In this document: positions 1,931 to 51,284 of the stretch, one piece after another
Layout of the letters: each line of letters begins with the position of its first letter
How positions within the stretch are numbered: position 1 is the stretch's first letter
Assembly (NCBI RefSeq): GCF_037042905.1
Contig: NC_087251.1
Coordinates: 30,568,001 to 30,632,000, forward strand
DNA from: Lytechinus pictus
Lineage: Eukaryota
DNA: 64,000 nt
Direction of reading: 5' to 3'
Made by a program: the position numbers and the translations under genes
The notes under the pieces: model-generated
What the model saw: the letters and a program-made list of their open reading frames with translations, nothing else
What the model was told of the DNA's origin: nothing
Database searches by the model: none

Positions 1931-4900
1931 CTGGAAAGCAAATGGAGAAAGACTTGCTTTGAGGATATTTGAACACATATTTCGAATTTGAAATCTATAT
2001 TTGTCTCAGGGTTTGTATACAGAAATTGCAGTAAGAAGTACATGACATATTTGAATGTTAATGTTATGACATTTTGTAATAGATACTAACACTCATCTGT
2101 TTGTTGATAATATACAGAAAGTTATGTTAAAGTAAATGTGTTTATCTACTTCATTATCTTTAATGTTATTTTCTGCATGTATAACGATATATTGTCATTT
2201 TTGCATTTGTATGTATTGTTCGTTTGTTTGTTAAATGTTGTTACAAATTGTTTTCCGGTTGTCATGCTCAGCTTTACGAACAGATTAATGAAACACTGCA
2301 ATTATGCTCTACACATAATGAATGTTTTCACATATCTCCTCATCCATTTTTTATGTATTTAGTCTCGGGAAAATTTGAGAACTCGAATGAAGAAAAAGCA
2401 ACATTGCTCGCTGCAATTATCTATACATAACTATATCAAAGAACAGTACCCTGTCATGCAAACTTTCCAGGTTTTCATGTGAGAACGCCTATTATATACA
2501 TTTATAGGAAGTGTAGTTTGAAAGACTATTTGCTCCTCAGATATATTATTTGATGTGTTATTTCACGAGTTTTAGGAAGAACATTGTGAAACAAAATTAG
2601 CTGTTGGTGAGAGAGGAAATTCTTGTGACTCTATAATTTAGATTATTTAGCATAATTCACTGTAACACTAATGACTGTACAGACAGTACAGTAATTGATC
2701 CTCAGTGCCACCTTCCAATCACATCATCAAAATGGCCATTGCTGAAGACTTTTCATGGACACAATAACTGAAAAGAAATGAAATGATTTCAAAGAAGAAA
2801 GTTCAACAAAAGATATTGTTGAACTACATTTCAACTACAATTCACTCCTGAGAGTCCTCGACCCAAAGATGTTGGTAGATTTGCTAATGTCATCTCTAAC
2901 TAAGGTACTGAAAATGACTGGAAAACCAGACAAATGCCAACCTAATCAGTCCACAGTGCAAAGTATAAACATTGAATGACTAGCAGAGCCCGTGGTCGTG
3001 GAAATTCCACGGGTTTTTGGGGAGTGATTATCACTGAACAAGCAGTAATTATACATCTTTAATATCAGGCCACCAAAAAAAAATTATTTGAAGGTTTTGG
3101 TGGCCACTTCCATTGACAAGTGGATACCATGTGCGACCATGGGGTCTCAAAAAGCACCCTAAACAAGTATTTTCCATACTCTGAAAATGCACCCCTTAAC
3201 AAGTATTAATTATGGCGTGTGAAACCCTACCCTTAACAAGTATTGGAAACAAAACTATACCCTGAATCGAACCCCTAGCTAGGCACGCTCACACATCACA
3301 AGAGGGCGCTTTTTCGCGAGCTCCGTTCGCTGTACAAAAATTGCGACTGGCGGCGGCAGCGTGACGAAGCGAAATTGAGCTCCAGAGGCATGGCATGGCG
3401 TTGTTCAATCCACTCATACATGTATTATATCGAATGCCAGAAAAATGATTTAGACACCATATGGCTGTGTGACGTATAGACTGACCATCTGACTCATCGG
3501 CACTTCCAGCGAACCAACGAACGACGATCGAGAGGCCTGGAAAATCACTTGTAAGTACCAAATTTGCCTGATTTTGTAGAAATTTTTAGTTTTATGAATA
3601 ATTATATTACTTGCACACTGATGCATCATGATTCATGATGAAGATGAAATTCTAAGCTTTAATTTAACACCGAAATTACGTGGGAAGAACTTGGCGGATG
3701 AAAGCGATTCAGCTTGATGCACAGGCCTGTTGCAGGCAAAATTGTCGCGATTTAGCGCCTTCGCGCTCTTGAATTTTGCGGGGGGGATTTGTCGTCTGCT
3801 TCATCTGCCCTGCACAGTCCCGCGTATCGCTTTCAGTGTGCACATTTGCACTCACTTATTACGTAGGTAATATTATTTTCTTCATTTGTTAGTCATGGAC
3901 CAATTTAACATTTTATTCACTTTAAAAATTTGTTATATTACAATGAACTAGATGCAAAACAAAGCACAAAACCTATTATTTCCTGTTCATTATGAATCAT
4001 GATGGATTAACATCTTATTCTCAGACTTTTGTTTTTACTTGTTTTCACTGTCTTCAGTTTATTTTTTTTGTTAGATCATGTATTGATATCAGAATATGGT
4101 ATGATTTTTTTATTTTTTTCCTTATATGAATATTTGATCTATTATAGACTTGGGGAAATCGATTATTTTACACACTCAGTATTTCTATTTGTAAATTAAT
4201 AAATTGTAAAATGCTACATTTTTTCAGAAATAAATTGGTGAAAGGGGGGGGGGTGCTCCGTTCTGATTTTTTTCCTTTAAATCCCTATGAAAATCACATG
4301 TATTTTTATTTTCAAAGCCCTTATTGAAAATCTTTTCGACTATGATTTGATTTATTTTCTTTTATTATTATTTTTGTTTCCTTCAGGTTTCGTAATCTAT
4401 TCCTGAAAACGCTAAATCGAGTCCATTATCAACTCATCATCCGCATGTCTGGCGACTGGCGAGAAAATTTCCAGGCCGATTGTGAACATCAGTCCAGGCC
4501 AAGGATAAAGCCATGAACGACCATATCTGGCTAATGCCACATGACAAGATCTCTATGCAGGATTACAGCTAGCATATGACTAGCTTGAGAAATTTAAATA
4601 TTCAAGAAAGAAACATAAGATTCTTATCTATTATTTTTTTATTATTTAGAGTTCTGTTTTGTTTGAATTTTTCGTTCTATTTTTCGTGTTTTGTTCTCGT
4701 AAAATTCTTGGAAAAAAATGATTTCTGTGTCATGTACTCCTAACAATTTCAGCACCAATTATTGCACATATTTTTTTCTGCACTGCACTGGGAAAGGGGA
4801 GGGGGGAGTAATTTTTCTTCCAGTATTTTATCATTAGGTGTCATGACTTTTTGATATCTTAATGGCACTTACGTTCTCAGGAATTTTTCCTCATATATGA

Positions 4901-5027
4901 ACTGTGGTCGAAAATCTGAATTATGGAATTGTAATAACTATTATTCAATTGTTTAAAGGGTTTTTTCAGCAAGGTTGCATCATTATTTTGCCTTCCAGAT
5001 ATTATTATTTGGCTTTAATATAAGATC

Positions 5028-5925
5028 ATGGCCAAAATGTCAGAAGAGGTGGATCATCTGCTCCAGCTACCAGCTGATAGGATTACTAATGGAGTTGTCA
5101 TTGATCTACTGCCAAAACTCACAAGAGGAGAGGGAATTACATGGTCACAATTTCATGAAATAGTTCAAAACAAATATGACTCTGAATGTTCTTTAAAGGC
5201 CCTTCAGACCAAGTTAACAAGGATCTATGGAAGGTACATGAAACTAAACAAAACAAAACAAACTAAAGACCAAAATGATGTGAAGGTCAACTATCTGCAA
5301 GAACCTTTCGAGCCCCCAGGAAAAATTGTTCAACCTCCAAAGAATGCTAAAGTAGACCAAGATCACGATGCTGCTAGTCCTAAAAAGAGAAAAGTCTATT
5401 CCAATGATCAAGTAGAAAATTTAGGAAAAGAACTTGAGAGATTCAAGGACATAGTACAAAAAACAGAGAGGGAAGTAATGACTTACAAGAAGAAAGTGAA
5501 GCACCTTGAGAAGGAAATGAAAAAGAATAAAGAAAAGGTTCAGTCTTTCACATCTATATTTGGCAGTGTAAGAGGTGGAAGAAAACGGATTACCGAAACA
5601 ATAAAGCGACTTAAACAATCTAAAAGGGAATGGAGGGTAAACTATCAAATGACAAAGAGTGAAGAAAAACGGAAGACAATTGAAATTACGAGACTTCGAG
5701 CACAATTGCAAGAAGAAAAGAGAAGACGTCAAAGAATTCAAAAGAAATACACAGAGCAAGAAAAAAATCAAGGTCGCCCAGAAGCAACAGGAGATTGAAC
5801 AACTCAAAGAAACTGTTGAAAATCTTCAATATGAAAAAGACAAGTCCCATCATCCTCAACAAATCCAAACCAAGATTGGTCAGTCCTACACCCCTCAGAT
5901 AAGAGAAGCATCCTACTATTTACAG
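5028..5925 (+). pseudogene. DNA transposase gene, first coding exon (basic, coiled-coil N-terminus), frameshifted at the A7 run 5761-5767
   Basis: ORFs 5028-5798 and 5659-5946 join if one A is removed; acceptor ttccag at 4998, donor CAG|GTTGGC at 5925, phase 0. Confidence 0.7.
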
Positions 5926-6921
5926 GTTGGCTTTGAATCAAGTTGATTTATAAAAAATAAAGTGATAGGAATTAAGTCATATAATGTTCATAATAGTCAT
6001 TTCAAAACTCCCCTTGTGACATTTTTAATATGTAAAACAGGTAATTGATCAGATACATGATTGTTTCCTGTGATACAGTACTAAAAACTGATCACAAAGA
6101 CCCAATTTCATAGAATATTGTATTATGGTAAACTTTGCCATTCCGGGGTAACTTGTCTAGAATCTTTGATTTTGATTGGTTGGTGATTAGCATTACCATG
6201 GGATGGCAAAATTACCATTATATTAGCTTGTATTTGTATGCAAAGTTGCCCTTGTCTATGATATAAAAATTACCTACTTCAATTGTTATAAAAATGTAGC
6301 GATTATTGCTTTTACATTTTTCATTAATAGCAAGGATGTTAAAAGGGATTGAAGTTCACTCAAATGCAAATAGAATAATTCAAGAATAGGATCTTTGAAA
6401 CCTTGATAACAATTGGGCAAAAAAGTTATGATGAGCATGTGTATGTTGATAACAGCATAGCTTATTATTTATCAAAAACTTCCTGTCTTCTACAGTTCAA
6501 CTGGTTTCAAGGATTTCATTCCTAATTATTGTTCACAATGAAGTTATTTCTAGAGCATGTTTTATTTCTTCCTATATTTAAACCATTTTAGATAATTTTA
6601 ATTTTGACTCAGTAATCTATAAGCATGTACTCAATTTCTTAAGTTTAAGTAATTTTTACAAAGTTTAATACTGTTTTAAATAACAAAAAGTCTCATTATA
6701 ATTGTTCTGGCAAAAAAGGCAAAGCCCAAATATGCTAACCCCAAATCTAACACTACACATTGATTTTCCTAACATAGTTTTAAACAAACTTCTGTCAAAC
6801 CCTAACCGTAACCAACTGTCATTGGATCAATTGCCACAAGAGCAAATGTCACATCATTCTGATAAAGATTGCATGCAAAATTATTACTGTATCCCTCCCC
6901 ACTTTTATAAATAAATTACAG

Positions 6922-7549
6922 AACCTAGGAGTCGCAGAAGGCAAAGTAAGTGAAGCAATTAGAGTTGTTGCAGAAACTCTATGTGATGTGACCTTCACGA
7001 ATGAGCTACCGTCTCGGCAAACTCAAGGACGCTTTGCTTCTGAGATGAAGGCAATTTGTCGGGACCAGATTGAGGAGCATTTTGTGTCAAAAAGCAATAC
7101 AACATTAAAGTATGATGGGACAACAAAATCGCGAGTTGGTCACCTAGTAGAATGCGAACTAGCTTCTAAAGAGAAAACGTACTTGGTAGGATTATGCCAG
7201 CAAGCTGGAGGAACAAGCGACGAATATATCAGTGCTATCAATGAATCTCTATCGGATGTGAATCCTTTACTGCTTGACGGCATAGCAAATATGATGACGG
7301 ATCGAGCGAGTGTAAATACAGCAATAGACAGGAAACTTTCTGACCTGAAAGGGGAATCTCATATCAACAGCTTCAGATGTGGAATGCACCCTCTGGACAC
7401 CCTTGGTAAGGCATGTGATAATGCATTAAAGGAGAGTGAAAGCCAAGATAAATATCATAGACTTTTCAAGAAGAGAGGGGAGAGTAATACCGCGTGCCTC
7501 ATCAGAAAGGTATCTGATTTATTCCATAATGAGGCAACTGGATGTGGTA
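6922..7549 (+). pseudogene. DDE transposase catalytic exon (hAT-like, CxxH group), truncated
   Basis: Acceptor ttacag at 6921 in frame with the previous exon; motifs LKYDGTT, MMTDRASVN, FRCGMHPLD; transposase-like sequence ends at the junction with another element at 7550. Confidence 0.8.
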
Positions 7550-7900
7550 TAGACCAAAAGCTTCAGTCTCTGTATTTTGGTTGTTCCGCTGAACTACGTT
7601 GGCTCCACTCACCATACATAGACTGAAGGGGATGGGGCCCCGTACCTACAGCCAACGTATAGTGAACTAGCGTTTTATAGATCGCGATTTAAAACTGTTT
7701 TTTAAGCAAAATTGAAAGTTTCATGGTTTCCATGATCAGGGAAATATAAATAACTTAAGTAATTGCATACCTTGGGCCGGAGTTATTGAAAAAAATCCTC
7801 TGGATGATTGAGAAATCTGTCATCTAAGACATTTTCACCTGACCCGTCGGTTTTTCTTGCAAGTTGCCATCTTGAATGACGTCATTATCGTTATTAACTT
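7550..7900 (-). mobile_element. Terminus of a non-autonomous element with subterminal hairpin and CRE/YY1 cassette
   Basis: 7550-7628 is nearly identical to the reverse complement of 57848-57927; 15-bp inverted repeat CTTCAGTCT(C/A)TGTAT; TGACGTCA at 7877-7884. The inner boundary is approximate. Confidence 0.7.
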
Positions 7901-10900
7901 AATGTCTCGAATCGATATATCGCGATTATAACTAGTAGTACTAGTACTAGTATAACTAGTATCGTTTATCTTCGGTTTCGTTCGCATATGGAGCAGATCA
8001 TATAATATCGAAAGCAATATCGATATCACATTCGTGATTGTTGACGTTCGTTCGTAAATATTTTATAGTTTGGCTGCCATTTTGACCATTTTTATCGTGT
8101 TCAACCCAATTAAACATCGGTAAAGTATATTTTTCATGCCTTTTTCATCTATATCGTTTTAAGTATTTTCATAATGGAATATCAAATATTAAAAGTTTGT
8201 TTGTTATACATCCTTAGATTGTAAATTCGATGTGTAAAATTACATCAAACTTTGGACTGTGAATTGACAAAAGGGAGGGAATGAGAACACATGCGAGCCC
8301 ACACGTACACCCTACCGTCGGTAAATGGGGATTACAGTAAAATGTCAGAAATTGTTGAATAAATCCCCAGAAACGACGGTTATTCCTGTCTAGATGTGGT
8401 ATTGCTCTGACATCCTTTCTGAAGACTGCTGGTTGTCCAGCGACAACATTTTTTTTATATTAATTTCCTGTTTGGTCTCATCTCAAATGGTCTAGTCCAT
8501 AGTCGGATGGGACAAGGGCAGATTGAGAGACAGGGCCATCTTTCATCGCTAGGTTGAATACTAGTGCCAACGGGTTGATTACTAGTACCAAAATCCGTCG
8601 CCATATAATTCGATCGCCCGCGCACACAGTCAACTGGTTGAAGAAAAAAATAACGGAAAAAGAATAACCAGCATTTGCTCTTGGAAATAAGACGGGTCTG
8701 AAATTCAGGTAAATTCTGACTATATTTCTATTTGAGGAAACTCTCCAAACGGGTTGAATACTAGTAGGGATCCCAAAACGAAAATCTAATTTTTTAAATC
8801 TATGTTTAAAAGCATTGAAAAGTACCTCACCTGAATCAGCATATTAAAAAACCCCAAGTGAATGACTTTTAGTGTTCCAAAGAGATCTAAATATCTGTTA
8901 ATCTGAGGCTAAAGTGGGTCCGAATTGTGACAGATTTGTGTACAAATTTCATTTTGAAATTTCGTCGACACGTACGCACAGAGCTCGGCACTGAACGAGG
9001 GATTGTGGGCGTGTCCTTTCTCGCCTCGGCCTATTGTTACCCAAATACACAACTCGAACGAAAGTGCGTTCACCGTCCCAGTTAGTCTCGGATCCGAGCT
9101 TATCCAAATAAACAATGATTAAATAACAACAAAAAATAGAAAGAAGAGAAAAGAGAAAAAAAATGGCTCAAATGCAGTCGTTTGGTGACGGATAGTATGC
9201 TCTGACCTCTTGCTGATATAAGGATTAGATATGACATAAGTTTTATGCCATGATAACTAAAGCATGGGGGGCGGGGGCACTGACTTTCAAAATAATAAAT
9301 TCTTTAAACATCTATATCTAGGCAAGGGAGGGTCCAGGATTTTCCAAAGGGGGGAGGGCACTATTAGCGGCGGCAATCAAAAAAATTTAGGGGGGGGGCA
9401 CCAAAATTTTTGACAAAAAAAGGTTATCAAAGGGGGGACCGAAAAAAAAAAATTTAGCCCCCCAAAAAAGGTAACAACGTCCCCCCATAGGCAGCGGGGG
9501 GGGGTCGTGTCTCCCCTAAATTTGAGGTGGGGGACAATCGCCCCCCCCCCTCCTAATTTTTTTGTCGATAACCTTTTTTTTTTGCTTGTCAATTTTTTTT
9601 CCTGCGTGCCCCCTAAATTTCAGTGGACCCCCCTAAAAATTTCATGGGGTCTCCCCTAAAATTTGGTTGATAAACCTTTTTTTTTTTTGGGGGGGGCTTG
9701 TCACAAAATTTTGGTGGTCCCCCTCCCCTAAATTTTTGCTTTCCGTTGCCAATGGTCCCAACCTCAGATTTAGGGGGGACAGGGCCTATGGAGGGCACAT
9801 TTTCCCGATGCAAATTTGATAAGCATTACAAAATGTTTTTACCAAAAATTCAAAGTCATTTCGTCCCTAAAAATTGACAAGCAAAAAAAATAGGGCCTAT
9901 ATAATATATATATAAATATACATATATATATATATATCCTCACTTTCAAGGGGCATGCTTGGGTAAAAAGGGCATGTTTATGTTACAAATTACAAATTTG
10001 GCTCTCGATAATTATGCCCCTTGGATCCACCAGTAATCTAAGTGGAATTTTTTGTTTTGAGTTTTGATATGGCTACCTTCTCGGAGGGCGTCCTCGCCGC
10101 GGTAGCTGGATAGTGCTGCAAAAGAGTAGGCCTTATACATCTTTTGCAGCATTAACTGACACTCCGAGACTTATAATTTTACCTTATACTTAAAACATGA
10201 ATAATACAAAATAAAACATAACACTTGTTTTTGGAGTAAGTTGATGTCAAAATATATTCAGTCTGGGGCATGGTGACTTGGAACTCTGCCCCATATCATT
10301 GTACTTGCCTCGCTCGATTTGTATCATAAAAAAAAATTAAAAATGTTTCCACATTAAAATATAGATCTAAGTACAATGGCCAGAAATAATAGTACGAATA
10401 AGCTAGCAGAATTTGTATCATACCACCCATATTATTGAACGCCAACGAAGGCAGTTTCTAAATCCTGTTTGCTTTATCCCACTTTTCCACTAAGATTTAT
10501 CCCTTTTGCGTGTCATATGAAAGCAGTTTTGTGCGCAGATCTAGCGTACCGGTAGGACCACATGCAGTCATTAATAGCTCTCTTTAATTTTTTTTCAACA
10601 AATGATGTCTCATGCTTTCGTTAAAATTAATAAATTAGAATCCTTGTATATGGCCCTGGGAAGTGGGGTGCTCGGGTTGTGACCCCCAAGTTTTTTTTTT
10701 TTTTTTTTTTTTAGCTGGTGGTGCGTTTTTTGTACACGTATATAGTTTAAAACAGGAAGAAGAATGACATTGATTTTTGTACCGCATTATTTTCATTAAT
10801 TTATTGGTAGAAATACAAAAAAAAAAGTTTTGAAAAAACATTTTTCAAAACTATTCCGCGGCTCCTGGAAGAATGGAGAGATGGACGGAAGGAGAGAAAT

Positions 10901-11260: not shown

Positions 11261-12522
11261 TTTTTTTTTTTTTTAATTCTGTTTTTATTATACAAATTGA
11301 AATAAATCACAAAATTTACAAATGATTAATAGGTGATTGCAAATCACATAAACACAATTTAGTTACACAAAAAAATAACAACCATAATAATTATTTAAAA
11401 AAAAACCTACCCACTTATCCTCCCCCACCCCCCCCCCCCCAAAAAAAAAAGGAATGTGGCAATGTGTTTGGTAAATAAAGTAGACAAAGCAAAATATACA
11501 AGCTATGATTATATGAAGTGGTTTCCAAACAACTATTCATAGGATTAAAAAGCACAACTGGTTATCCAAGACGACATAATTATAGAGGTTTTTAAAAGAA
11601 TACTAGTAAGTATATCAAGGTGACTGAGATTGCATGAAAAAATGGGATCTGATGTCTACAACCATATAACCAATACAGTGCAGTATTATTAAAAAGTGGG
11701 ACACTAAACCTGTTATACAAAATATACAGTGTTAGTTATCGTGTAACCTGCTGACATTTTTGACAACCAAATTATAAGGTGAATCGCCACTTCTTAAAGT
11801 GAGCGGGCAACTTATTTTTTTTCTTAGCTATCAAATATTCCAAGTCTTGTTGTTTTTTAACAAATGTTTTAAAAAGAGCAAAACTTGGAGGATTATTCTT
11901 AAATTTACATGTATGAATATAATACTTCAAAAGTAAAAAAAGGTATGAAATGAACTTATCAGTTGAGAGTCCGAACATTTTTTCAAAATTAGAACCATTT
12001 ATTTGAACATTATTTTGGGAAATTTTCGTTAAAAGGGATTGCCAAATAGGAATTACCCTTTCACATTCGCAAAACAGGTGGATAATTGTTTCCTCACTTT
12101 TATCACAGAAAACACAATTGGGTGAATCCTTAGATTTAATCTTATACAAAAAATCATTTAATGCTATGGCTTTATGAAAAATCTTAAAATAGAATGATCT
12201 TAATTTAGTATCAATGGTACAAAAAAAATTTGTGTAGTGTACCTTTTCCCAATCGATAGATACTGGTATTGGTAAACGTTCATCCCAATAAGTGTATCTT
12301 TTGTCAGGTGTGTGTGATCCCCTAAATAAAATGTATGAATGTCTAGGGACTTTTTTATAACTCAACAATTTATGTACAATTGTTTCATGAACACCAATAA
12401 TATCAGGGTCAAAACTCACTAACCATTCTTCCGGGATGCACTTAATTAAAAAATTATATTTCCTTCTGTCTGTTTGGGGGATTCCAAAATCTAACACAAG
12501 CTCTTCAAAGAGTTTGTGACCT
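11261..12522 (-). mobile_element. 5'-truncated L1/Tx1-type LINE (ORF2 C-terminus with zf-RVT-like CxxC..HLFxxC), poly(A) tail, 18-bp TSD
   Basis: Open frame 11772-12522 with CVFCDKSEETIIHLFCEC; AATAAA then poly(A); AGGATAGGTATATAACTT at both 11243-11260 and 12523-12540. Confidence 0.92.
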
Positions 12523-14084
12523 AGGATAGGTATATAACTTAGCAATTGATGCGAAGCGCGAGCACAAAATTGGAAGATTTAGACCTAAAAACAAGACATG
12601 TCTAGTCATGTCTTTTAAATCATCATGGAAAGGATGTCAAATTGCCGATCTTTGTTACTTTAATAATGCTCGCGCAAATTAGCGCGAGCATAAGATTTTT
12701 GTATACGTTTTGAACCGATCAAAAAGGTACCTGTTGAGGACTGCTTATTTCACTTAGCCATGGAGACGTTACATATTTCAACAATAAAATAATGCAAGCG
12801 CGAGCCGATTTTTTTTTTTACACTTCTACATAAAGAATGGAAAATTTTAATCAATTATTGTGACCATGAACAGGATCGTCGTTATAAAACAATTAATGCG
12901 AGCGCGAAGCGCGAGCGGAAAAAAAATCGACATTTAGACCTAAAAAATGGGACACTCTACTCCTGTTTTGTATAATAAGGATGAGTAATAGGGGTTCTTC
13001 CTACATAAAAAATGCGAGCACAAAGCGCTAGCAGAATTTTGTTTTTCAGAAACTGGATAATGGTTGAAATACTAAGAAGTTGAGTATCTAGATAGACATG
13101 CGCTCGCGTGTTTCCGATTTAGGCCTACAATCTAGGCATTCTGAATATATATTTTAACATGAAATTGAAAATCAAAGCGAGCGCGAAGCACGACCTTAAA
13201 ATATTTGACATTCTGATCTGAAAAAGGGGTCAATTTCAGCTCAAGTACTTTGTGAGGTGGATTTGGATCGCACTTAATAAAGAGCTGATAGATTTGACAA
13301 AGGACCGGGACATGAAAGTGATGAATATCTTCCTATTCCTCTTGCTAAGAGCGAGATGAAACAGAAAGGACAATTTAACCATTAAAATTAATATCTGATC
13401 TATAAATGCCTAATGAGGCGCGAAATCTGATGATAACATGGTATGAAAACTGGAAATTTCAAGCACTTTTGTAATTATGAATATGATGTATCAGGTAATA
13501 TTTTTAACCGTTTATGCGAGCGCAAGTCGCGAGCCAAAATTTTTATAAGGCCAAGTCACAAGGATTACCCTCCTTTTAACTGCCATTATCAATATGTTAC
13601 TACATTATAACCATGTATTTACTCTACATATGCATTAAATTATGTGAATCCCATAATCTTGAACCATTAATGCTTCTTTCTTTGACCCATGCTATTTCTG
13701 CCCATATATCTCTTGAGGGTTTTTTTTTTCTCTCTCAAGGTGTGTATGGCACATTGAGGAGTATAGAAGCATGTTGGAGATATTGAAAGGGGTAGAATAA
13801 TTGAATGAAATTCACGAATGGGAGAGATGCCGAGGGGGGGGGGGGGCAAAGATGTTGAGACAGAAAGGGGGTTTGAGAGAAAAGAGGGGAATTAACTATA
13901 AAGGAACAGCAGTCAGGAGAGGGAAAGAGAGAGGGGGGAGGAAATCGAAGGAAGATATGCATACGATAAAAGAGTCCTCGTAGAAAAAGTGAGAGAGAGG
14001 GGGGATATGGAACTGAGAGATCATAATGAGATAAGAAAGAAGTAGTAGTGCATGGGCGGATCTATCGCCAATAGGGGGGGGGGG

Positions 14085-23195: not shown

Positions 23196-23321
23196 ATGGC
23201 CGACACAAGTTCGAAAGATTTGCCTTTCAGGGTGGAGTATGCGAAAAGTAACCGTGCTTCGTGCAAGTCATGTCGCAACAAAATCGACAAAGAGTCATTG
23301 AGATTAGCTAAAATGGTTCAG
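23196..23321 (+). CDS. PARP1: PARP1 exon 1 (zinc finger 1, N-terminal half)
   Basis: [34 protein letters not shown]; donor CAG|GTAAGT, phase 0. Confidence 0.96.
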
Positions 23322-30372: not shown

Positions 30373-30601
30373 TTAATTCTTCTTAAAGAGATCATCTATT
30401 TTTTACATGTACAGGTGTTTTTCCATGCTCGCGATACATCAAACACTGCATTTGCTAATTCAGTATATCAGCACATCTTTGAAAGTACCCATATGTAGAT
30501 AATTTTTTTTACCATACCTCACATCTCAGTTGAACACTTCATCATAAATTGCAGATATACTAATATACATAAAGTACTCTTTCCTGTTTCCCAACTTACA
30601 G

Positions 30602-30798
30602 GGGGCTTCCCAAGTTTGAGATGGGATGATCAACAAAGGATCAAGGAGACATTGTCTGGAAAGAAGCCTGGAGGATCGCTCAAAAGTGCAGATCCCGATG
30701 AAGGAGGAGAAAGTAACACAACACTGACTCAGTTTACTGTGGGTTATGCTAGTTCTGGACGAGCAAAATGTCTTCGTTGTGGAGAAAAGATTCCAGAG
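30602..30798 (+). CDS. PARP1: PARP1 exon 3 (end of Zn1, start of Zn2)
   Basis: GFPSLRWDDQQRIK...GYASSGRAKCLRCGEKI; phase 1 to 0. Confidence 0.95.
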
Positions 30799-30941
30799 GT
30801 AAGCTTCCTAGACAGAGTTTGAAATCAGTGAAGACATCATGCACGTACATGTATTTTCTTCTAGATAACACAATGTATTTGTTTTTCTTTATTTTGTTTT
30901 TAACATGCAGTGTGTTCATGTCATACTGGTAGTAATGATAG

Positions 30942-31778
30942 CAGGGTGCTACATAAGCACTTGCCCGATTGCCCGGGGGAAGTAAAAGTTAGAGTTTGGC
31001 AAGTGTTTTGAAGTAAAGACCAAAACTACTTGCCCAAATTGGGCAAGCAAAATTCTCATAGTAGAATTACCAAAATAAGGGTCAATATGATATGATATTG
31101 ACCCTAATTTTGGTCATGGCAGGCAAGATAAAATCACTTTGGAAAAAGAAATGCAATAACAAGGTAGATCAGTTCATGTCAAAAGAGAGAAAAAGTTAAA
31201 TAGTTTTTAAAACCGCAAAACTTTCTTTTGAAGAGGTAAAACTTTTTTTGAAGGATTTCTTTGGGCAAGTGAAATAGATTTTTGGGCAGGTATATTCCAA
31301 ATATTTAAAAATTTGCTTGCCCGACCAGGCAAGTGCTTCTAAAAAGTTTTATACAACTCATAAGATTGTTCTGATTGGTCCAAATCGGATCACATGATAT
31401 TCAGTGAATTGCACTATTGCATCCAAAATGCACTATCCTGCACTCTGACGTCATACCAAAAGTACTATCCTGCACTCTGACGTCAGAGTGCAGGATAGTG
31501 CAAGGTCTGGAATTATCTATAATTTAGATCAAATATAGCTATCGGGACAACTAATTAACATGGGGGAGGAGGGGGCTGTATAAAACAAACAATGCACGCA
31601 TTCTTGTGCATAGAGGACCTAAATAATGAACTCTGTGCTCGACTCGCCAAATGGATATACTGCACTCGGTCCTGCAGACCTCGGTGCGGTATATCCATTG
31701 GCTCTTCTCGCACATTGTTCATTATTTGGCCCTGCATGCACGCGCATACGTGCCTTATGTGTATAATGTAGCACCCTG
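30942..31778. mobile_element. Non-autonomous DNA transposon, TIR CAGGGTGCTACAT, 6-bp TSD TGATAG, with a nested insert at about 31350-31765
   Basis: 13-bp perfect TIR and flanking TGATAG seen directly; internal CTTGCCC/GGGCAAG subrepeats. Confidence 0.8.
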
Positions 31779-32062
31779 TGATAGTCTTGAATTTTATTAT
31801 TTTCTTGGAAAACTTTACTGATGAGTATGTCAGTGACAGGTTTTTTTTTTGGTGGAAGTGTTCTTGAAACCATCATTGTACAAAACTTTGAGATCTATTC
31901 ATCAAAAATTTATCATTTGAATTAGCAACAAGGACTGGCAAGTGTAGGTTTGTTGGACTAAAAAATGTTGTTTAGCACTTTTCTTTTAATTATTCTTGAT
32001 TATGATTGTCTACTTTGTGATCCAATGCTGTTATTATCCGTCTTGTACCCATTCAATATAAG

Positions 32063-32262
32063 ACGACAGTTCGAATCGCCTTCATGGAACCGGTAGAAGA
32101 GTATCAGCCAGTACCCCGCTGGCATCATGTGGATTGCTTTGTTGATGCGAAGTATATGGAGAATGATCTTAGTGAATGGCCTCCTAACGGTACAGCCAGT
32201 ATGCTCACAAGCTTCGATCGTCTGAAGGCTAAAGACCAGAAGATGCTAGAAGAGAAATTCAA
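32063..32262 (+). CDS. PARP1: PARP1 exon 4 (Zn2)
   Basis: TTVRIAFM..PRWHHVDCF..FDRLKAKDQKML; phase 0 to 2. Confidence 0.9.
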
Positions 32263-32807
32263 GTATGTATCCCATGATGTTGCCCTCAAAGTTCATTGAA
32301 AAACACACTGTTTTATAAAAGGAATGTATCAAATCAGATGTAGAATATTAAACTTTTGGCAGTGAGTTATTGAATTTTTCTCTTATTTTCTCTGAGGAAC
32401 TGGTATACAAAACACAAATATTTATAGAAACAAGGAAGCGGTTCATCCAAACCTCAATGTTATATTGAACGCGATATGAAAAAAAAAAAAAGTAATGATA
32501 GTGAGTCATGGATTTCAATTTTTCTGTGAGTGTCGCTAAAGTGCTTAATTGAGGGAGTCTATGATGCCACTACTCAATATATCTTTTCTATTTGATTATA
32601 TGAAATTTAAGATTAAACACTTTTCCTCCAATTTGTTTGACCCCTCCTGGAACATCGATAAGGATGAGATCCTTATTGTAACTAATTGTAGATGTAGTCA
32701 CTAGCGATTAAATATTGACTAACACTGTTTTTGCAACAAGCAATGAAAGAAGTCTTTTTTTCTTATACATTGAATTTTAATCAATATTATCCCGTTTTGT
32801 TTTACAG

Positions 32808-32916
32808 GAAGGCATTGCCAAAGACTAAAGGCAAAGGAAAAAAGAAAGGAAAGACAGGTCCTCCTCCAGAGAAGAAAGCTGCTCCAAAGCTCAGTAAACT
32901 AGATCAAGATCTCAAG
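32808..32916 (+). CDS. PARP1: PARP1 exon 5 (basic NLS-like linker)
   Basis: KALPKTKGKGKKKGKTGPPPEKK..DLK; phase 2 to 0; canonical splice sites. Confidence 0.9.
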
Positions 32917-33270
32917 GTGAAAATTTTTTTCCCTGTAAAGTTGTTAGTTGAGAGATCATCAGTTTTAAATGTTTATTTTCATTTAGAATAAATAATACAG
33001 ACTTCATATACTAATATGATATGAAAATGAATCATAAAGAATTTAAGTATCTTAAAAATTGAAAGTACATTAATTGCATTATAACACAAGACAAGCTTTA
33101 AGGCCATGTGATTTTCATTCTTTACAATGCCCAACTTGTCTCCAGAATGTTTAATAAATATTTTCATCTTAAAGTTAATATCTACAATTAAAGATAATAT
33201 ATCATTAAAGTTATAGTACTATACATCATACTTTTTGATCTGTATTTTTTATGAAATTTTGGCACCTCAG

Positions 33271-33387
33271 ACCCAGAACGACCATCTTTGGGCAATCCGT
33301 GACCAGCTTTACCGATGGGTTAAGAATAATGGACTGAAAGATATACTTGAAGCTAATGATCAGGAAGTCCCTCCAGGAGAAAGTAAG
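33271..33387 (+). CDS. PARP1: PARP1 exon 6 (Zn3/PADR1 N-terminal part)
   Basis: TQNDHLWAIRDQL..LKDILEANDQEVPPGESK; phase 0 to 0. Confidence 0.93.
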
Positions 33388-34064
33388 GTAAGAAAAGAGT
33401 CCTACTTCATCAAGAGTTGTGGTAAAAGAAATGCAAGTTTACTATCGGCTAATAAAATTGATACTGTTGCTGCAAATGTGTTACTATAACAACTTTTATG
33501 AAACAAGACTGTGTGCTCATTTATACCTCATTCTCACTGCCATGTGATCCGTTATGAATGCCACAATTGACTTTTCGTAGCTGATAACAAAAAATATTGA
33601 ACCTTTCTAAAACAAAATCTACGATCAATACTGTTGCCACGGTTGATCTGTTATGATCAATTCAATTAAGACCACAGTTTCCATTGTGGCATGAATCGAT
33701 ACAGTGTGAACAAGGTATTAGGATTTATTAAAAATAATACAGAATAGATAAGAGTCAAGTAAATGAAAGTTTTAATTGTTGTTAACATGATATTGTTCTG
33801 AAAAGAAGAGAGAGTAATTTCTATATCAATGGAATATATCATACCTACTACCACTACTTGGGAGGGGGGGTATGCCATCATAATGTATTAATGTTTTAAG
33901 AGGTTCTTATACCATTTACTGAATTTTACAAAGTGGAGGGCGGGGGTAAGGGTGATTTCTGCGAGTGTCAGGTGAATTTGTGCACCTCCATTTCATTGGA
34001 GCAGGACCATATTTACAAAACTTTTCAACTTCTACTTGAGCTTAATAATTCTGTCATCCTTCAG

Positions 34065-34279
34065 CTTCTGGACAGTGTGGCCGATGGCATGATGTTTGGT
34101 GCCCTTGAGAGTTGTCCCGAATGCAAGAATGGCCAGCTGGTTGTGAGTTCCTCCGGTCTGACCTTCAAGTGTACCGGTAACCTGACATCTTGGACCAAGT
34201 GTCAATACAGGAGCAAGGATGTCCAAAGGAGCAAGACGTGGCACATTCCGGAATATCTCAAGGAAGATATTGATTATTT
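34065..34279 (+). CDS. PARP1: PARP1 exon 7 (Zn3/PADR1)
   Basis: LLDSVADGMMFGALESCPECKNGQL..CTGNLTSWTKC; phase 0 to 2. Confidence 0.96.
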
Positions 34280-34601
34280 GTAAGTCAGTAAACTGTTCAA
34301 CCCTCTAGCATCAGATTGTGCAGCTGATTAATGACTTGTGGCAAATCAGGAACTCAGCAGGTAGCTGTGCTATATGTATCTTAATTAGAATTTCCAGTAA
34401 CTTAAAAATCAGACGACTGTATTTAATTTATAGGGAATGAAATCTGCACTAAAACAATCAAAATCTGACAGCCAGCTTTGACGAATTTTCCCTATTTCTT
34501 GAATACAGTACACATTAGCCCATATTCTGAAATCGGGATTTACATTCAACTCTGGTCTATCTATCGATAGCCAATTATAACAAAAATCCATAACAGTACT
34601 G

Positions 34602-34783
34602 GTGGGTGTTTCATAAAGCTGTTCATAAGTTAAGAGCAACTTAAAGAACGACTGGTGATCCTTTCTTGTGGAAAATGCGGGGGGAAATGGTATATTCATT
34701 GACAATGGTTACGCGTGTAAGAAAGGTTCACCAGTTGTTCTTAAAGTCGCTCTTAAGTTACGAACAGCTTTATGAAACGGCCC
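34602..34783. mobile_element. Harbinger-like palindromic MITE, TSD CTG
   Basis: GTTTCATAAAGCTGTTC..AAG / ..GAACAGCTTTATGAAAC arms of about 60 bp. Confidence 0.75.
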
Positions 34784-35052
34784 CTGGTTTGCTTTAAAAA
34801 CTTCATGAAGACAACCTAATAGCCAATCACAATCAATTGAGGCCTCAATTCTGTAAGCTGCAATTTATTTTGCATTTAAACATAAAACATAGTATTATCA
34901 TGTCAACCTTTGTAGTGTATTTACTTCAAACATGCACAAGGTATCTATTATGGATGTGGCCAAGTGTTCTTCATATAGTTCTGAATTTTAATTTGTAGGA
35001 AATCCTTGCAGATATTTCTGTAAAGTAATGATCAATTGTTTTTGTTATGCAG

Positions 35053-35154
35053 GAAAAGCTTCAAATTTGTTGCCTATAACAAGGGTAAGAGATTGTTTCC
35101 TGAAGAGGAGGAAGAGGCATCAGGAAGCCAAGAGGGAGCAGGAGACGGAAAAAG
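35053..35154 (+). CDS. PARP1: PARP1 exon 8 (Zn3-BRCT linker)
   Basis: KSFKFVAYNKGKRLFPEEEEE..; phase 2 to 2, bridges exons 7 and 9. Confidence 0.88.
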
Positions 35155-35718
35155 GTTTGTTTCCATTTAATTCTCCTTTCGCTATTAAAGCACCCATGGG
35201 AAACATTTCATGATATAATAGTGATTTTCACTGAAAACTGTTATAAGCTACTGAAATCCTTGGATTTGATTGGCTCAGAATGAAGTACTCTTTGAAAATC
35301 ACTGACCTGATGCTCCTGAGACCACCCTCGTAATTAATGGCCATATTGATCTATGTTACATTGGTCCTTTTGCCTCATTTTGTTTTGATAGAGATTTCAT
35401 ATGTCCAGTAGACTGGTTGCTCAGTACTTACCTGTGGTTCTTTCAACCAGTTTCCTCATCCCATTGGGAGCATGAAACAGACTTTTGTTGAAAGCTACTG
35501 AAATCCTTGCATCTGATTGGCAAAAATCACTAACTATTTCATGAAACGCTCCCTTGTAGGGCTGTGCATGAGTGATTGTTGGGAGTTTGGTAACATTTCA
35601 TGATCTTGAATGTTCTACCACTACGCAGACAGAACCCCCCCCCCCCCCCATGTGCAGCAAAACATATTTGGTGTTGGGATGAATAAAAAATTGTGAAACT
35701 TATCTTATTCTTGTACAG

Positions 35719-35885
35719 GAAGTTAGCCAAGAAACCAGAAGAGAAAGCCCTTCACAACTGTACTATCGTACTTCATGGTAAATTATCCAAGAGCAATAAA
35801 GAACTGAGGACAGTCATTCAGGGTCTTGGAGGTGATGTCGCTACTAAGATCACACCGGAAACAGCATGTGTTATTAGCACTGAAG
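35719..35885 (+). CDS. PARP1: PARP1 exon 9 (BRCT)
   Basis: IVLHGKLSKSNKELRTVIQGLGGDV..ACVISTE; phase 2 to 1. Confidence 0.93.
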
Positions 35886-36605
35886 GTATGTTTTGTGAAA
35901 ATTGAGTTTGAATAGAATGGATTCACATTGTGCAGCTAAGTAGCATCACTGCACTGCATATACCATGAGCAGGTATAAAATCAAATAAAATAAAAAGCTA
36001 AAGTAAGGCCTGAGCTGATCTATATTTCAAATAGATCTAGTCCTGTTCCTCATTCCTCCATAAGCCTAATGTTCCATCTATTTTGGTTGTTTGGTCTACG
36101 TTGGACTATGCATACAAGACAGGTGTTGTAGAAAACAAATATTCAATGTTTTATCATTCATGTGACCATTCAAATATTACATTCGGTGCAGTCTATTCAC
36201 TCGGTGCAGTCTATTCAACTCTGTTTCGCGTTGTTGAATAGACTTTCAACTTGTACGCTAATGTATTATTTGGTACAATCGCACTCATAAACGTGTGATT
36301 ATTTGTATACTCTTTGTAGAGACATGTATGAACACCATCCATGAATTCAAAGTCTTTCAAAATTTTATACAGTTCCTGAAATCCATTTATTGAAAAAATT
36401 GGATTATGACTGGTAGGACATCATCGGAATCCAGGAAGTCATTTTTTTTTTTTTTTTTTTTAAACTTTACTCAGCGCTACTTTTTTACAGCGGCTTTTAT
36501 TTCAATTTGTAAAGTTTTATAAGGATGAGGAGATAGGGATCTTGAGGAGAAACAGATTTTCTGACCAAGACTTAACCATTTTTTCTTTGCTTGCTTCAAT
36601 TTCAG

Positions 36606-36751
36606 CTGAAGTAAAGAAGATGAACAAGAAGATGAAGGAAGCCAAAAGCAATGATGTCCATGTTGTTTCAGAAGATTTCCTAGATGCTGTTAAGAATGGA
36701 GGAGCAGCTCTTATGATCACTCAACACAGTATCTGTAATTGGGGATCAGAT
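36606..36751 (+). CDS. PARP1: PARP1 exon 10 (BRCT)
   Basis: EVKKMNKKMKEAKSNDVHVVSEDFLDAV..HSICNWG; phase 1 to 0. Confidence 0.95.
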
Positions 36752-37241
36752 GTAAGATAGAGTATTTAAATGTCTTATTTACCTAGGGTAGCCACTTCAG
36801 CTATAATGATATGTTTTCCCCAGCAGTTCTTCCTCTCAACATTCCCTTAATTGGTCCTTTGACCCTCATTCTCAAGGGGTTTTATCCTTTTCAGAGTTTG
36901 AAGAAGAGTAACTCGTCTCAAACTCAAAAGTGATTTGCTCTAAGAAAAACAGGTTTTAATAACTAGCTTTTAATTGGGCTAATTTAACGTTTTTCGTATA
37001 ATATAATAGATAGGTGTACAAAATCTTTTGAATCCAATTCAATAAACAATATTTTATATGATAAACAGAATATTTTTATTTTATTAACAGAGCTTTTCAA
37101 TTCGATTTGTTTTATTTAGAAGTAAAGTGTGCAAGGAATTTCAAATCTGGCAGTATTCGAACCAAGAATCTGTCTAGTTTTGTACACTTTTAATTCTTGG
37201 GCATTGATATCTCAATACTCAATCACTTGTTATATTTACAG

Positions 37242-40095: not shown

Positions 40096-42206
40096 CAGAG
40101 CTGCCAACCATTACGTTTTTGCCGTAATCATTACGTTTTTTCATTCAAATTACGGCATTATGGTTTTTCTTTTCAAATTACGTTTTTTGACAATTTTGAT
40201 AATGTGTGTACATAATTGTATGTATGTGGAGTGCGTGTTGAGCCCACTGAACTAGAAATACGTATTTCTAGTTCAGTGGTTGAGCCCGAGATGAGCCTGG
40301 TATTTGCGCGTGCGTAGTCGCCCGCCGGCCGGTTTTCCAACGCACTTTAATAATTTGATAGCGTTCACGTACATATACGTTAGTTGAATATGCGAGCGGC
40401 ATGCATGGTACGAATCGCGATGTATAGCGACTGGTAAATACGTCTGTAACGATGATGACGTCATCCAAGATGGCAACTTACGATGACAAACGAAAGGATC
40501 GAGGATGATTATGTTTTGATCATCATTTGAAAGGAAATAACAGTAACTGCGGTCTAAGGTACGATATTTCTGAATTTTATATATTTTATCTTAAATTTGC
40601 ATGTAATTTCTTTCCTATAAAGTGATGTTTTATGTACAAAAAAACGATCCGAAAATCAGATTTCAGAATTTAGATCTAACCTTACTTGTCTTTACGCACG
40701 GGCCAACACTCTTCAGGTGATCGAGCCAACGTTTGTTCTTCCAGCGCAGAGCGAGGAGTACGATGAATTGGGTAGGGTAATTCCCAAATGTAGTAAGAGA
40801 AGAGTCCATTTGTAATGGAGGGGGATTTGGAGGTTTGAGGGAAATTATTATTCCATTTGCAAAATTTTACAAAAATACTCATCATATATATTAAAGATTG
40901 AATCATCAAAAGATATTTTTCATATACTTTAAAATTAATTGTTGTGATAAAGAAATGAAATTTTGAGGCTATTTTCTTGAATTGATTAATATCAATTCCC
41001 TTCGGATAACGGTACGGTACTGTCTGGTTAATTTTCATCAACTCGTAATCGTATCAAACAAATACGATGAATTCGGCTTTGAAAAGACCTGGAAAGCTCT
41101 TCATTGTCCCTTGAAGTAATAATTCTGGGTGATATTCAACATTTATTGATAGTTTCACATGATTTATACTAGAGAGATGTCCTACTGCCTTTGGAATTCA
41201 TTAAAAAAGTCGGCACTTTAGCATTCAGTTTAGCAGGAATGGGAAGATTTCTTCCCCGGTTCTGGCGGCCTAGATGTCTGCTCTATAGTGCCGTCACTGC
41301 TGGGGATGATTGAGTGTGCGTGCAGTGTGATTGAGGCTGAGCTGTGCACATCGTGAAGTGATTTACGATGGGACTTTTGTGGAATGATTTCAACTTCTTA
41401 TCTATAGATCTATTTGAATTTTAGATTAGATTGATTTATGAATAATTTTTCTATATTTGTGGAATGTTACATGTACACTTCCATTTTATGACACTTTAAT
41501 TTTAAAGGGTACTGTTTGGCAAAAACAATGTTACTTGGGAAGAGAAGTCTGAATTGATGTCAACTTTTTTTTTATATTTCTCTTAGTCTACAATTTGGTA
41601 GTTTTGTCAGGAAACTCAACATAAAACAATTAATTATTTTAGAAGTGGAAAGGAAGCCCCAGAAAAATGGGGCCCTAAAAATGTTCACCAGAACTGATTT
41701 TGGTGCCCCTGAAAGAATTTTTTCTCGACAGATCTTCACTTTGATAAGTGCCGGAGTAGGTTGCACTACAAAATGAAAGGCCTACTTGTCATTTTTAGAA
41801 AAATTTGCCTAGGTGCCCATTTGACAAGAATAAAAGTGGCCTTCATGTCCTTTAGAATGGCCTTGATACCCCTTGAAATTTTGGGGCATCCAAGGCCACT
41901 TTGCCGGTTGCCCCAAGCTGAAAGTGCCCATTTGAAAATGGCCTTGCCCCTCTCAATTCTTAATTCAAGCCCTGCTACTGACTTAATTAAAATAAGGGTC
42001 CAATTTGTAACGCTCCGTTACTTAGCCCAGACTAGGCCTAGAGATTAACTTTTTTTAAATTGTTCACTGCATACATACTTTTTGCATTGGATGTTTGTCG
42101 CATGTCGTTTTAAGGTTCGTTTTAACACATTCCTTTTTTTTGTTGGAAATTCCTTTTTTTGGCCGTAATGATTCCTTTTTTTGCTTGCACAAGGTTGGCA
42201 GCTCTG
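40096..42206. mobile_element. Non-autonomous DNA transposon, TIR CAGAGCTGCCAACC, 6-bp TSD GATCAG
   Basis: 14-bp perfect TIR with GATCAG at 40090-40095 and 42207-42212. Confidence 0.85.
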
Positions 42207-48867: not shown

Positions 48868-49980
48868 CTATAACCAAACATCATTATAACTTGATTGTCT
48901 GTTAAATGTTCTCCTAGAAGCACTTCCATTTTTAATGCTGTTCGCTCTCAAAAGTCTCCTCCTGTTGTATCTGCAGCAGAGAATATCCCAACACTCGTGC
49001 CGAAAACTAGGATTTATCATAGAATAAAGAAGTGGATTTAAAACTGAGTTGAGATACGGTAGAATATTCCTGCAAATGTACACAATCAGCACCTTCATGA
49101 CTTGTGGGTCCTCGTGCACAAAACTGTGATATATTTCAAGGATGGTCCTCGGTAACCAGCATATGATAAAAACAGCAATGACCAGAAGGAGACGCTTGGC
49201 GACGATCAAGCGTGTCTGGTTCATGACCCTACACCGTCCAAGTTGGTGCTGCGCATGGCGGTTTCGTTTCGATAGGACAGAGAAGATACGGAGGTAGTTC
49301 ATTCCTATGACAGTCAATGGTAGGATGAGAGTGATAGACGCCTGGCCTATGGCAAGGAAGATCCTCATTGGAGAACCCACCTTCACCGTGAACCGACACC
49401 CTGGAGCGCCGTAGTAGAACACCGCTGGGAACGCCACCAGGACGGACATGACCCAGATGCAGATGATGATCTTCCGCACCATCCTGGAGTGTATGCGCAT
49501 GTCGAAGGGTCGGCAGAGGGAGTAGAAGCGATCGATGGAGATCCCAACTAGGATCCATGATGAACAGATCAGAGTTTGGTGCCAGATCACCATTATCGCC
49601 TTACACTCAGAAGCTGTGATCCTACGATGCATGGCCATGATCTCAAAGTATATATGCATTGGCACAACAATGATACAGACTGTGCAGTCAGTTATGGCTA
49701 AGCTACAAAGAAAGTGATTTGCTGTTGACTGCTTACGTTTGGTGTTTCTCAGGTACACTAGAATCACCAACATGTTGCCAACTGTTCCAGTGACAAGGAA
49801 AACGGACATGAGCACAAGGTCGACTACAGAATGTATTGCACTTGGTTGAGGAAAGTAGAAAGGGTCAATAGTTGGCTCTTCTTCAGATCCATTTAATAAT
49901 AAACTATTGTTTTGAGTCCCACTATAAATATCATATGATAGAGATTCATAATACCAACTTTCTGTCCCTGTGGAGGCCAT
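48868..49980 (-). CDS. Class A (rhodopsin-like) GPCR, peptide-receptor-like, about 370 aa, single coding exon
   Basis: Seven hydrophobic segments with GN, LAITD, C(TM3), DRF, W(TM4), FIICWLP, NSVLNPLLY and helix 8; N-terminal NxS sites. Start chosen at agaATGg (49980); an in-frame ATG in weaker context lies at 50007. Confidence 0.93.
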   Translation of the reverse strand: MASTGTESWYYESLSYDIYSGTQNNSLLLNGSEEEPTIDPFYFPQPSAIHSVVDLVLMSVFLVTGTVGNMLVILVYLRNTKRKQSTANHFLCSLAITDCTVCIIVVPMHIYFEIMAMHRRITASECKAIMVIWHQTLICSSWILVGISIDRFYSLCRPFDMRIHSRMVRKIIICIWVMSVLVAFPAVFYYGAPGCRFTVKVGSPMRIFLAIGQASITLILPLTVIGMNYLRIFSVLSKRNRHAQHQLGRCRVMNQTRLIVAKRLLLVIAVFIICWLPRTILEIYHSFVHEDPQVMKVLIVYICRNILPYLNSVLNPLLYSMINPSFRHECWDILCCRYNRRRLLRANSIKNGSASRRTFNRQSSYNDVWL

Positions 49981-51284
49981 TCTGCTCTGGGATATATTTT
50001 TTAGCATTAAAGAGCATACATGTGGGGAGGTATCCTTTATTTGTCCAGGTAATGCAAACCACTTCCCTGTGATGTGTTTGCTAATCCTCAAATAAATCCT
50101 CTATCCATTGCATTGCTTATGATGATGTCCAAAGCATACATATACTCCTTGATTCCTTGTTTCATTTTATAGATTTATGTCACTCTCCATTCTTTTACAT
50201 CACATCTTTGTGTCTGGAAACGGCATATCCTGTATATTTCGCCTGGATTCTAGAAAAGTTGGTAAAAGAGAGAAAGAGAGAATCGATTGTAGTGATATGT
50301 TTATTATCCCTTCTATTTTTTTTTATAGCACATTTAGCATTTGACCATGATCTTACAGTATCAAAAGAAATATTTAGATTTGAGACATTTCATATTTTAA
50401 TTTGAAAAAAATTCATTGTTGTTTCGATGAAGATAAACTTCTTTGATAATTCTCCCAGAACTGTACTGTACATCAAATGTAAATTTCAAAAAGTGTGAGA
50501 GGAGAAAGTATTCTCGCCAGGTGAAGAGCATGTTTATATTCACTTTACCCAAAATATCGAGAGCAATATTTTGACAGCTTAGAGAATTTGAGTAATGCCT
50601 TGCTTTCCAAGACACTTAATGACTCAAACTTGTATGGGATAGAAGCTCTTCTGTTTACTTTCCCAGACCTCGTTAGTAAGCACCTCGATGGGTTTAATAG
50701 CGTGCTTCTACGTGCCAGGTTTGTTAGGACATCGCATACCTATTTGTGTAACAATATTTTGGGAGGCTTTTTTAGAAGCAACTTTTGTGCAAAAAAGAAA
50801 ATATGCCAAGATTTGTTTTGGAAGAAAGTTTGATTATTTTTTTTCTTCAATATGAAAGCTACTGACATCAGAGTTCTTAATGCTATTTTGGGTACTTTGT
50901 TTTAAAATTTTAAAGACAGGAATGTGCAACTGAAGCATCCAAATACATACTCATTTTCAGGGTCATTTTGGTGAGAAAGTGTACAGATTTGATTATTTTT
51001 TTTCCATCAAATGCATCAGATGTCTGTATTATTGATTTGAAAAATTAAAAAACCATTCCATTTTTAGCAATTTTATACATCAACCCTTCCTTATCCCATG
51101 TAAGAAAAATGTTTTCTGTAAAAAAGTTTCCTATAAGAGTGGCACATCGCTATATTCCTTATGATCAAAGTACATTCCCACTCCCTCTTGTTTTAGACAT
51201 GTAATATTATTAAATTTAGGGATTTTAAGGCATTCCTAATATAGCTGAAGTATGTGCAAGATGTTCGGTCAATCAAAACGTTAA

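Follow-up and report, generated by a model that had tools for sequence, protein, structure and literature searches.

Can a transposon lodged in the first intron of LRPPRC donate an alternative first exon and exchange the mitochondrial presequence of the protein for another basic peptide? The question is raised by a short stretch on the minus strand of the window (the whole 64,000-nt stretch of DNA analysed here), for which the initial annotation had noted a perfect CRE followed by a YY1-like box and an ATG in good Kozak context. Upon re-reading of the sequence, all three elements were found where they had been placed: the ATG at 7870 is flanked by R at -3 and by G at +4 and forms part of an AAGATGG core, and its codons read ATG GCA ACT TGC AAG AAA AAC CGA CGG GTC AG, followed by GTGAAA. 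The open reading frame MATCKKNRRV, which reaches CAG/GTGAAA (the slash marking the exon boundary) after 32 nt in phase 2, was likewise correct in coordinates and frame. At a junction with exon 2, the two spare nucleotides and the first A of that exon would form AGA (R), after which the frame stays open into TSNLQCLSAA; the suggested product MATCKKNRRVR-TSNLQCLSAA is hence in frame with the exon 2 acceptor at 1930, 5.9 kb downstream of the module, which lies in the sense orientation of LRPPRC. The features of the locus are compiled in Table 1.

Table 1. Features of LRPPRC, of the candidate start module and of the repeats that carry it, in window coordinates; splice-site scores are from matrices of the gene's own sites
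Feature	Position	Strand	Basis	Score (bits)	Real LRPPRC sites scoring lower
LRPPRC exon 1, coding part MASALRSLKFSRLLPLAARIAARSSLQRSARIISARTLDDSIGRNLG, 140 nt, phase 2, donor GGG/GTAAAT	19135-18996	-	tblastn and sequence	7.8 (donor)	18/36 donors
LRPPRC intron 1, 17,065 nt, repeat-swollen	18995-1931	-	sequence		
LRPPRC exon 2, including internal ATG at 1848 (start of P0003)	1930-1713	-	mapping of P0003	10.5 (acceptor)	28/35 acceptors
LRPPRC exon 3	935-813	-	mapping of P0003		
LRPPRC exon 4 (PPR)	368-247	-	mapping of P0003; PPR_3 E 6.5e-6		
CRE, perfect palindrome TGACGTCA	7884-7877	-	sequence		
CAAGATGGC box, YY1/TISU-like, AAGATGG core, holding ATG 7870-7868	7874-7866	-	sequence; core compared with passages of PMC2518114		
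Candidate 32-nt coding start, MATCKKNRRV + AG, phase 2	7870-7839	-	sequence		
GT of proposed donor CAG/GTGAAA (7839 donor)	7838-7837	-	sequence	4.8	2/36 donors
In-frame TGA closing the ORF MATCKKNRRVR-stop when the 7839 donor is unused	7837-7835	-	read-through ORF		
Donor-like AAG/GTATGC, exon end 7771, kept between TE subfamilies	7773-7765	-	alignment, matrix	8.5	22/36 donors
Donor-like ATG/GTGAGT, exon end 7613	7615-7607	-	ORF reading, matrix	8.8	25/36 donors
Element A, 843-bp non-autonomous DNA-transposon-like repeat, TAGAC...GTCTA	8392-7550	-	genome copies		
Upstream copy of the 9-bp TSD of A, TACCACATC	8401-8393	-	copy comparison		
Downstream copy of the 9-bp TSD of A, TACCACATC	7549-7541	-	copy comparison		
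Element B, main part, ~4.3-kb low-copy repeat hosting A	3274-7540	+	B copies; end near 3274		
Element B, short end past the A insertion	8402-8450	+	flanks abut in 5 other B copies		
Element C, ~1.15-kb MITE-like repeat, 13-bp TIR CAGGGATGCCACT	57093-58238	+	genome copies		
CRE + CAAGATGGC module in element C	57455-57473	+	motif scan		
Third composite motif copy, in a C-like repeat (about 40100-40760), ATG ORF closed after 7 codons	40456-40474	+	motif scan, alignment		

LRPPRC and its canonical first exon

Judging by its PPR repeats and its end-to-end likeness to annotated LRPPRC, the gene is the LRPPRC orthologue. Pfam reported PPR_3 and PPR_2 at the locus, and a search with the exon 2 peptide matched three long proteins named LRPPRC-like in sea urchins. 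The annotated Lytechinus pictus protein P0003 (XP_063958510.1) showed 100% identity over 63% of the exon 2 query, and each of its 36 coding exons (36/36) has an exact counterpart in the window or in the 60 kb beyond the window start. Exon 2 begins at the acceptor ttgctttccag/AACTTCTAAC. The assembly contained no alternative haplotype of the exon 2 region, whose unique part matched only itself.

The first residue of P0003 is the internal Met of exon 2 (METAQP...) and not a residue of exon 1. Using the N-terminus of the Diadema homologue P0002, we obtained a tblastn match at 19135-19001 with an E value of 2.5e-6. Exon 1 joined to exon 2 reproduces exactly the N-terminus of P0007, an older model of the same species, and the N-terminus of the sister-species model P0004 is nearly the same. 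Intact and in frame with exon 2 through its phase, the canonical exon 1 lies 17 kb upstream, is left out of P0003 and is used by P0007. The internal start of P0003 would fit a 5'-incomplete model, that is, an annotation gap, and a non-canonical 5' exon equally well.

A GC-rich stretch at 22-24 kb, considered as a site of exon 1, was rejected, as a PARP1-like gene on the opposite strand has its first exon there. This gene (23196-23310 and 30499-36800, both on the plus strand; Pfam zf-PARP and PADR1) is divergent from LRPPRC, with the two first exons about 4 kb apart. Further along the window, a single-exon ORF of 410 codons at 48868-50100 on the minus strand encodes a rhodopsin-family GPCR (7tm_1, E 1.9e-39).

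Exon 1 had been taken to encode the mitochondrial targeting peptide, and this assignment is supported by a basic, acid-free N-terminus that is conserved with the urchin homologues. The canonical N-terminus contains six basic and no acidic residues within its first 30 positions, the first acidic residue standing at position 39. The peptide thus looks the way a presequence would be expected to look, and mitochondrial import is predicted from it.

The other 35 introns of LRPPRC have a median length of 699 nt, with none above 2385 nt, and intron 1 is about 24 times as long as this median because of nested repeats, which largely make up its excess length. One further repeat in the intron is a retroelement fragment at 11772-12578 on the minus strand, with a 268-codon ORF matching zf-RVT, a reverse-transcriptase-associated zinc-binding domain.

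The repeats that carry the module

Is the arrangement of CRE, ATG and donor a property of this locus? The origin from a transposable element, suspected in the initial annotation, is borne out: the site lies within an 843-bp repeat, element A, which is flanked by 9-bp target site duplications. With window positions 7700-8100 as the query, the 40 scored places (40/40, from 535 first-look candidates) were all in the same genome at 98-100% identity. The boundaries of element A were sharp with a 6-kb query and recur in full-length copies. The element begins TAGACAGG and finishes GGTCTA, and each of the eight clean copies (8/8) has a 9-bp TSD of unrelated sequence; this count comes from ten loci, from which L002, with a duplicated 60-bp end, and the 5'-truncated L009 were left out. 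In some copies the final 60-72 bp are duplicated in tandem (e.g. 1292-1351 in L002).

Element A is classified as a non-autonomous DNA-transposon-like repeat because it has no tail, yields no tRNA gene in a tRNA scan and no match in Rfam (0 each), and contains no ORF longer than 75 codons. The same zero counts rule out a tRNA-derived SINE or a known RNA gene, and the constant TSD length and missing tail rule out an LTR as well as a SINE/LINE reading. By its TSD length of 9 bp, it may be a Mutator-like or Merlin-like element. In its constant TSD, hundreds of homogeneous copies and lack of a long ORF, element A resembles MITE-type non-autonomous DNA transposons. Its short inverted ends (TAGAC and GTCTA) would make a putative terminal inverted repeat of 5 bp only. 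Unlike in a typical MITE, its 3' 111 bp are common to element C, the terminus of which is unrelated.

The signals themselves are widespread. Allowing three mismatches, the genome contains 348 copies (189 forward, 159 reverse) of the 52-nt core that runs from CRE to donor, compared to none for the reversed control. Its majority form reads ...AAC CGT CAG GTC AG/GTGAAA and gives the consensus peptide MATCKKNRQV. The copy in the window differs by two private substitutions (CGA CGG), neither of which gives rise to CRE, ATG or GT. The 24-nt composite TGACGTCATYCAAGATGGCAACTT has 762 exact occurrences in the genome versus 0 for its reversed control. Within the window, the 19-nt motif of CRE plus CAAGATGGC was found three times against 0.00 expected, always in repeats, and perfect CREs were found five times against 0.43 expected, three of the five within the same TE module. 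The composite exceeds chance so strongly because it is a repeat consensus and not a locus-specific arrangement. Indeed, CRE, ATG and donor signals are the family consensus of element A.

The two remaining perfect CREs, at 31446 and 31478, belong to a short repeated unit, ctatcctgcactctgacgtca (31430-31500, plus strand), which is partly an inverted repeat and lies inside an intron of the PARP1-like gene.

Element A is nested in a second repeat, element B, of which there are about six copies in all, at 84-98% identity. The five other B copies at 96-98% identity (5/5) are without A, and the two flanks of A abut there directly; this A insertion is therefore a late, local event. Element A would thus have inserted, with duplication of 9 bp, into an element B already present in LRPPRC intron 1. 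Element B contains two plus-strand ORFs, 5019-5798 and 6784-7626. For the former, Pfam returned only DUF1664 and GST_C_7, both weak and below the curated cut-offs, and for the latter no family. In a protein atlas, the second ORF was matched by protein-language features at 0.94 to unnamed mollusc proteins and at only 0.76-0.81 to ZBED/hAT RNase-H-like clusters, a weak lead. The end of element B is adjoined by a 165-bp high-copy repeat at 3099-3263, the copies of which show about 92% identity.

The module is also present in element C, for which the search gave 4887 first-look candidates, with copies at 85-94% identity. Although the termini of A and C differ, C contains a 111-bp segment homologous to the 3' end of A. 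Its flanks share ATTGTT. In an alignment of A with two C-like copies, we found the nearly invariant blocks AATCGCG, ATGACGTCATYCAAGATGGCAACTT and GTAACTnCGGnCnAAG/GTA, the last being the 7771 site in A; the CRE/CAAGATGGCAACTT motif is among the conserved blocks, and the GTAACTnCGGnCnAAGGTA block at the 7771 donor-like site is invariant in all three aligned sequences (3/3). The stretch of the 7839 donor, in turn, is an A-specific insertion that appears as a 12-column gap in both C-like relatives, and the ATG of the C-like copies opens nothing but the seven-codon MATYDDQ-stop. The conserved unit is therefore the promoter-like module together with a donor-like site, and not the coding start.

The A family has a promoter-like module consisting of CGCG palindromes, the CRE and the YY1/TISU-like CAAGATGGC box, followed by donor-like sites, and A has this module in common with the older, very abundant family C. 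Its retention between two repeat families with different termini hints at a function for the transposable element. The shared module may have originated from a captured gene 5' end or from an autonomous element.

Splice-site strength and the explanations weighed

How well would the proposed donor work? We scored donors with a matrix built from the 36 donors of LRPPRC itself, i.e. from one gene only, and ranked them by leave-one-out (Table 1). By this single-gene measure, the 7839 donor is below ordinary host strength, and 57 of the 860 GT sites in intron 1 score at least as high. Counting open ATG-to-donor pairs in intron 1 with a donor fitting at least seven of nine consensus positions gave 28 pairs, nine of which are in phase 2, in agreement with the 1-in-3 chance that the initial annotation had attached to the phase match. 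This count is a rough yardstick, since the real exon 1 donor GGG/GTAAAT fits only 6/9 positions, and the gene-specific matrix is the better measure. Three of the intron's ATG-to-donor pairs have an ATG in Kozak context, and the one starting at 7870 is the only phase-2 pair among them. The ATG-to-donor arrangement at 7870-7839 is no more than chance.

We consider it probable that the site, as part of a young intronic transposon, is inert and that its phase match with exon 2 is coincidental. The module would then have yielded a short ORF, and the weak GT 32 nt into it, as by-products, and the common phase would be a 1-in-3 coincidence. LRPPRC itself would most likely be expressed from the intact exon 1 that encodes the presequence, the TE copy being an inert passenger that gives rise at most to rare chimeric transcripts of no adaptive value. 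From these sequence features, we infer that the 7839 site is not used.

Some features speak against inertness. Having a perfect CRE and, in one orientation, an AAGATGG core, the module resembles a genuine promoter, and its sense orientation together with the strong acceptor 5.9 kb downstream would favour use. A TISU-type ATG, which according to passages of PMC2518114 can initiate from very short leaders, would do so as well.

If the module does fire, the sequence points more readily to the downstream donors than to a fusion. The 7771 and 7613 sites score 8.5 and 8.8 bits versus 4.8 bits for the 7839 donor, and the former lies in the block that is invariant among the aligned subfamily sequences. 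As the TGA at 7837-7835 precedes both sites, a transcript using either of them has an 11-codon uORF (MATCKKNRRVR-stop) at the 7870 ATG and encodes no fusion. After splicing to exon 2, LRPPRC would be translated from Met 1848, lacking both the presequence and the TE peptide, and P0003 does start exactly at METAQP. However, P0003 may simply be a 5'-incomplete model, and both P0007 and P0004 use exon 1. Moreover, with at least 348 copies sharing the same module, general activity would be costly, for which reason the module is likely silenced. We regard this course of events as unlikely.

Next in order of probability, the module may be conserved internal DNA of the element, such as a segment bound by transposase or prone to recombination, or a fragment captured from a gene, with an incidental likeness to CRE and YY1/TISU and without promoter activity. 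Its presence in two families with different termini and TSDs fits segment capture or recombination, and in neither A nor C does a coding continuation follow the ATG. However, that the module has hardly changed between diverged subfamilies suggests that the element is under selection, and an AAGATGG box and CGCG palindromes beside a perfect 8-bp palindromic CRE are typical promoter grammar. We hold this explanation to be improbable.

A bolder proposal is that elements A and C have spread a portable CRE plus YY1/TISU promoter with donors to hundreds of sites, and that the LRPPRC copy starts transcripts which run into exon 2 and lack the presequence, either as the MATCKKNRRVR fusion or from the METAQP start. 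We assign this proposal a distinctly small probability.

This leaves the isoform originally suggested, in which transcription would start just upstream of 7870 and splicing from 7839 to exon 2 would yield MATCKKNRRVR-TSNLQ... with an altered, possibly nuclear localisation. Its frame and phase are correct, and apart from the 7870 ATG no ATG in Kozak context within the intron is paired with a phase-2 donor. Yet the 7839 donor is weak, with only 2/36 real donors lower, stronger donors compete downstream, and 348 copies have these signals in common. The young insertion is absent from the five other B copies (5/5), and therefore no long-term selection is claimed. A MATCKK start occurs in none of the five annotated proteins (0/5) of the LRPPRC 90% identity cluster, and a search of the protein collection for short ORFs matching exon 2 returned three candidates, none of which scored. 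The absence of an annotated fusion isoform counts as weak evidence against use of the site.

What would become of the localisation of such a protein? KKNR in MATCKKNRRV fits the pattern K-K/R-X-K/R of monopartite nuclear signals. Among the first 30 residues of the hypothetical fusion N-terminus, six are basic and none is acidic; an acidic residue first appears at position 31. The helical moment resembles that of the canonical form. Exon 2 encodes the stretch ...LSAAISRFQSISA..., including ...AAISRFQS..., and is kept in the fusion. According to the rule that an arginine stands near the cleavage site of presequences, LSAAISRFQSISA is probably the distal end of the presequence. Since the fusion N-terminus is basic and acid-free and the probable presequence end lies in exon 2, a loss of mitochondrial import does not follow, and the non-mitochondrial, possibly nuclear isoform proposed in the initial annotation is not upheld. 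Passages of PMC5435865 describe an N-terminal targeting signal of mammalian LRPPRC and discuss its debated nuclear role, which would count in favour of the proposal. With KKNR set against presequence-like features, the sequence does not decide the compartment of the fusion protein. Taken with its weak donor and generic signals, we judge the fusion isoform to be very unlikely, the least probable of the readings considered here.

Relation to known systems and implications

The fuller TISU consensus contains GGC. Unlike it, the CAAGATGGC context has AAC after ATGGC, and the related C-like copies open a seven-codon ORF only. The likeness lies in the box with its AAGATGG core in one orientation, from which the ATG could start with a very short leader. 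In TISU itself, as described in passages of PMC2518114, the AAGAUGG core fits the YY1 consensus and lies close to the TSS, with a median leader of 12 nt.

The mechanism proposed for LRPPRC would belong to a well-known kind, that of TE-initiated chimeric transcripts, which include LTR- and LINE-driven gene isoforms (PMC5513427, PMC5134097 and PMC12999487). By analogy to these, a sense intronic element presents promoter-like motifs and a donor upstream of a host acceptor, with an ORF that is open into the host exon. For the published cases, which involve an LTR or a LINE, there is transcript evidence. The candidate LRPPRC site differs from them in its weak donor and in belonging to a non-autonomous DNA transposon.

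Dual targeting of mitochondrial proteins by alternative N-termini can come about through alternative first exons or start codons (PMC3575844). The proposal for LRPPRC follows a similar idea, namely that localisation changes when the presequence-coding exon is replaced or skipped. Unlike in such cases, exon 2 of LRPPRC keeps a distal presequence-like part and the replacement peptide is basic and acid-free; therefore, no change of compartment can be predicted with confidence.

For annotation, it is useful to know that the canonical exon 1, although intact, is missing from the current model P0003. Our analysis also calls for caution: a striking arrangement of promoter, ATG and donor within an intron can be plain repeat consensus, and such arrangements need to be compared with the other copies of the family and with the splice sites of the host gene. 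Should LRPPRC make use of the site, it would provide a clear example from an invertebrate in which a DNA transposon has rewired the N-terminus of a conserved mitochondrial RNA-binding protein and perhaps altered its compartment. A portable promoter spread by A and C would, if true, provide a lineage-specific route to an extra-mitochondrial pool of LRPPRC, and with it a natural experiment on whether this protein has a role in the nucleus, which is disputed.
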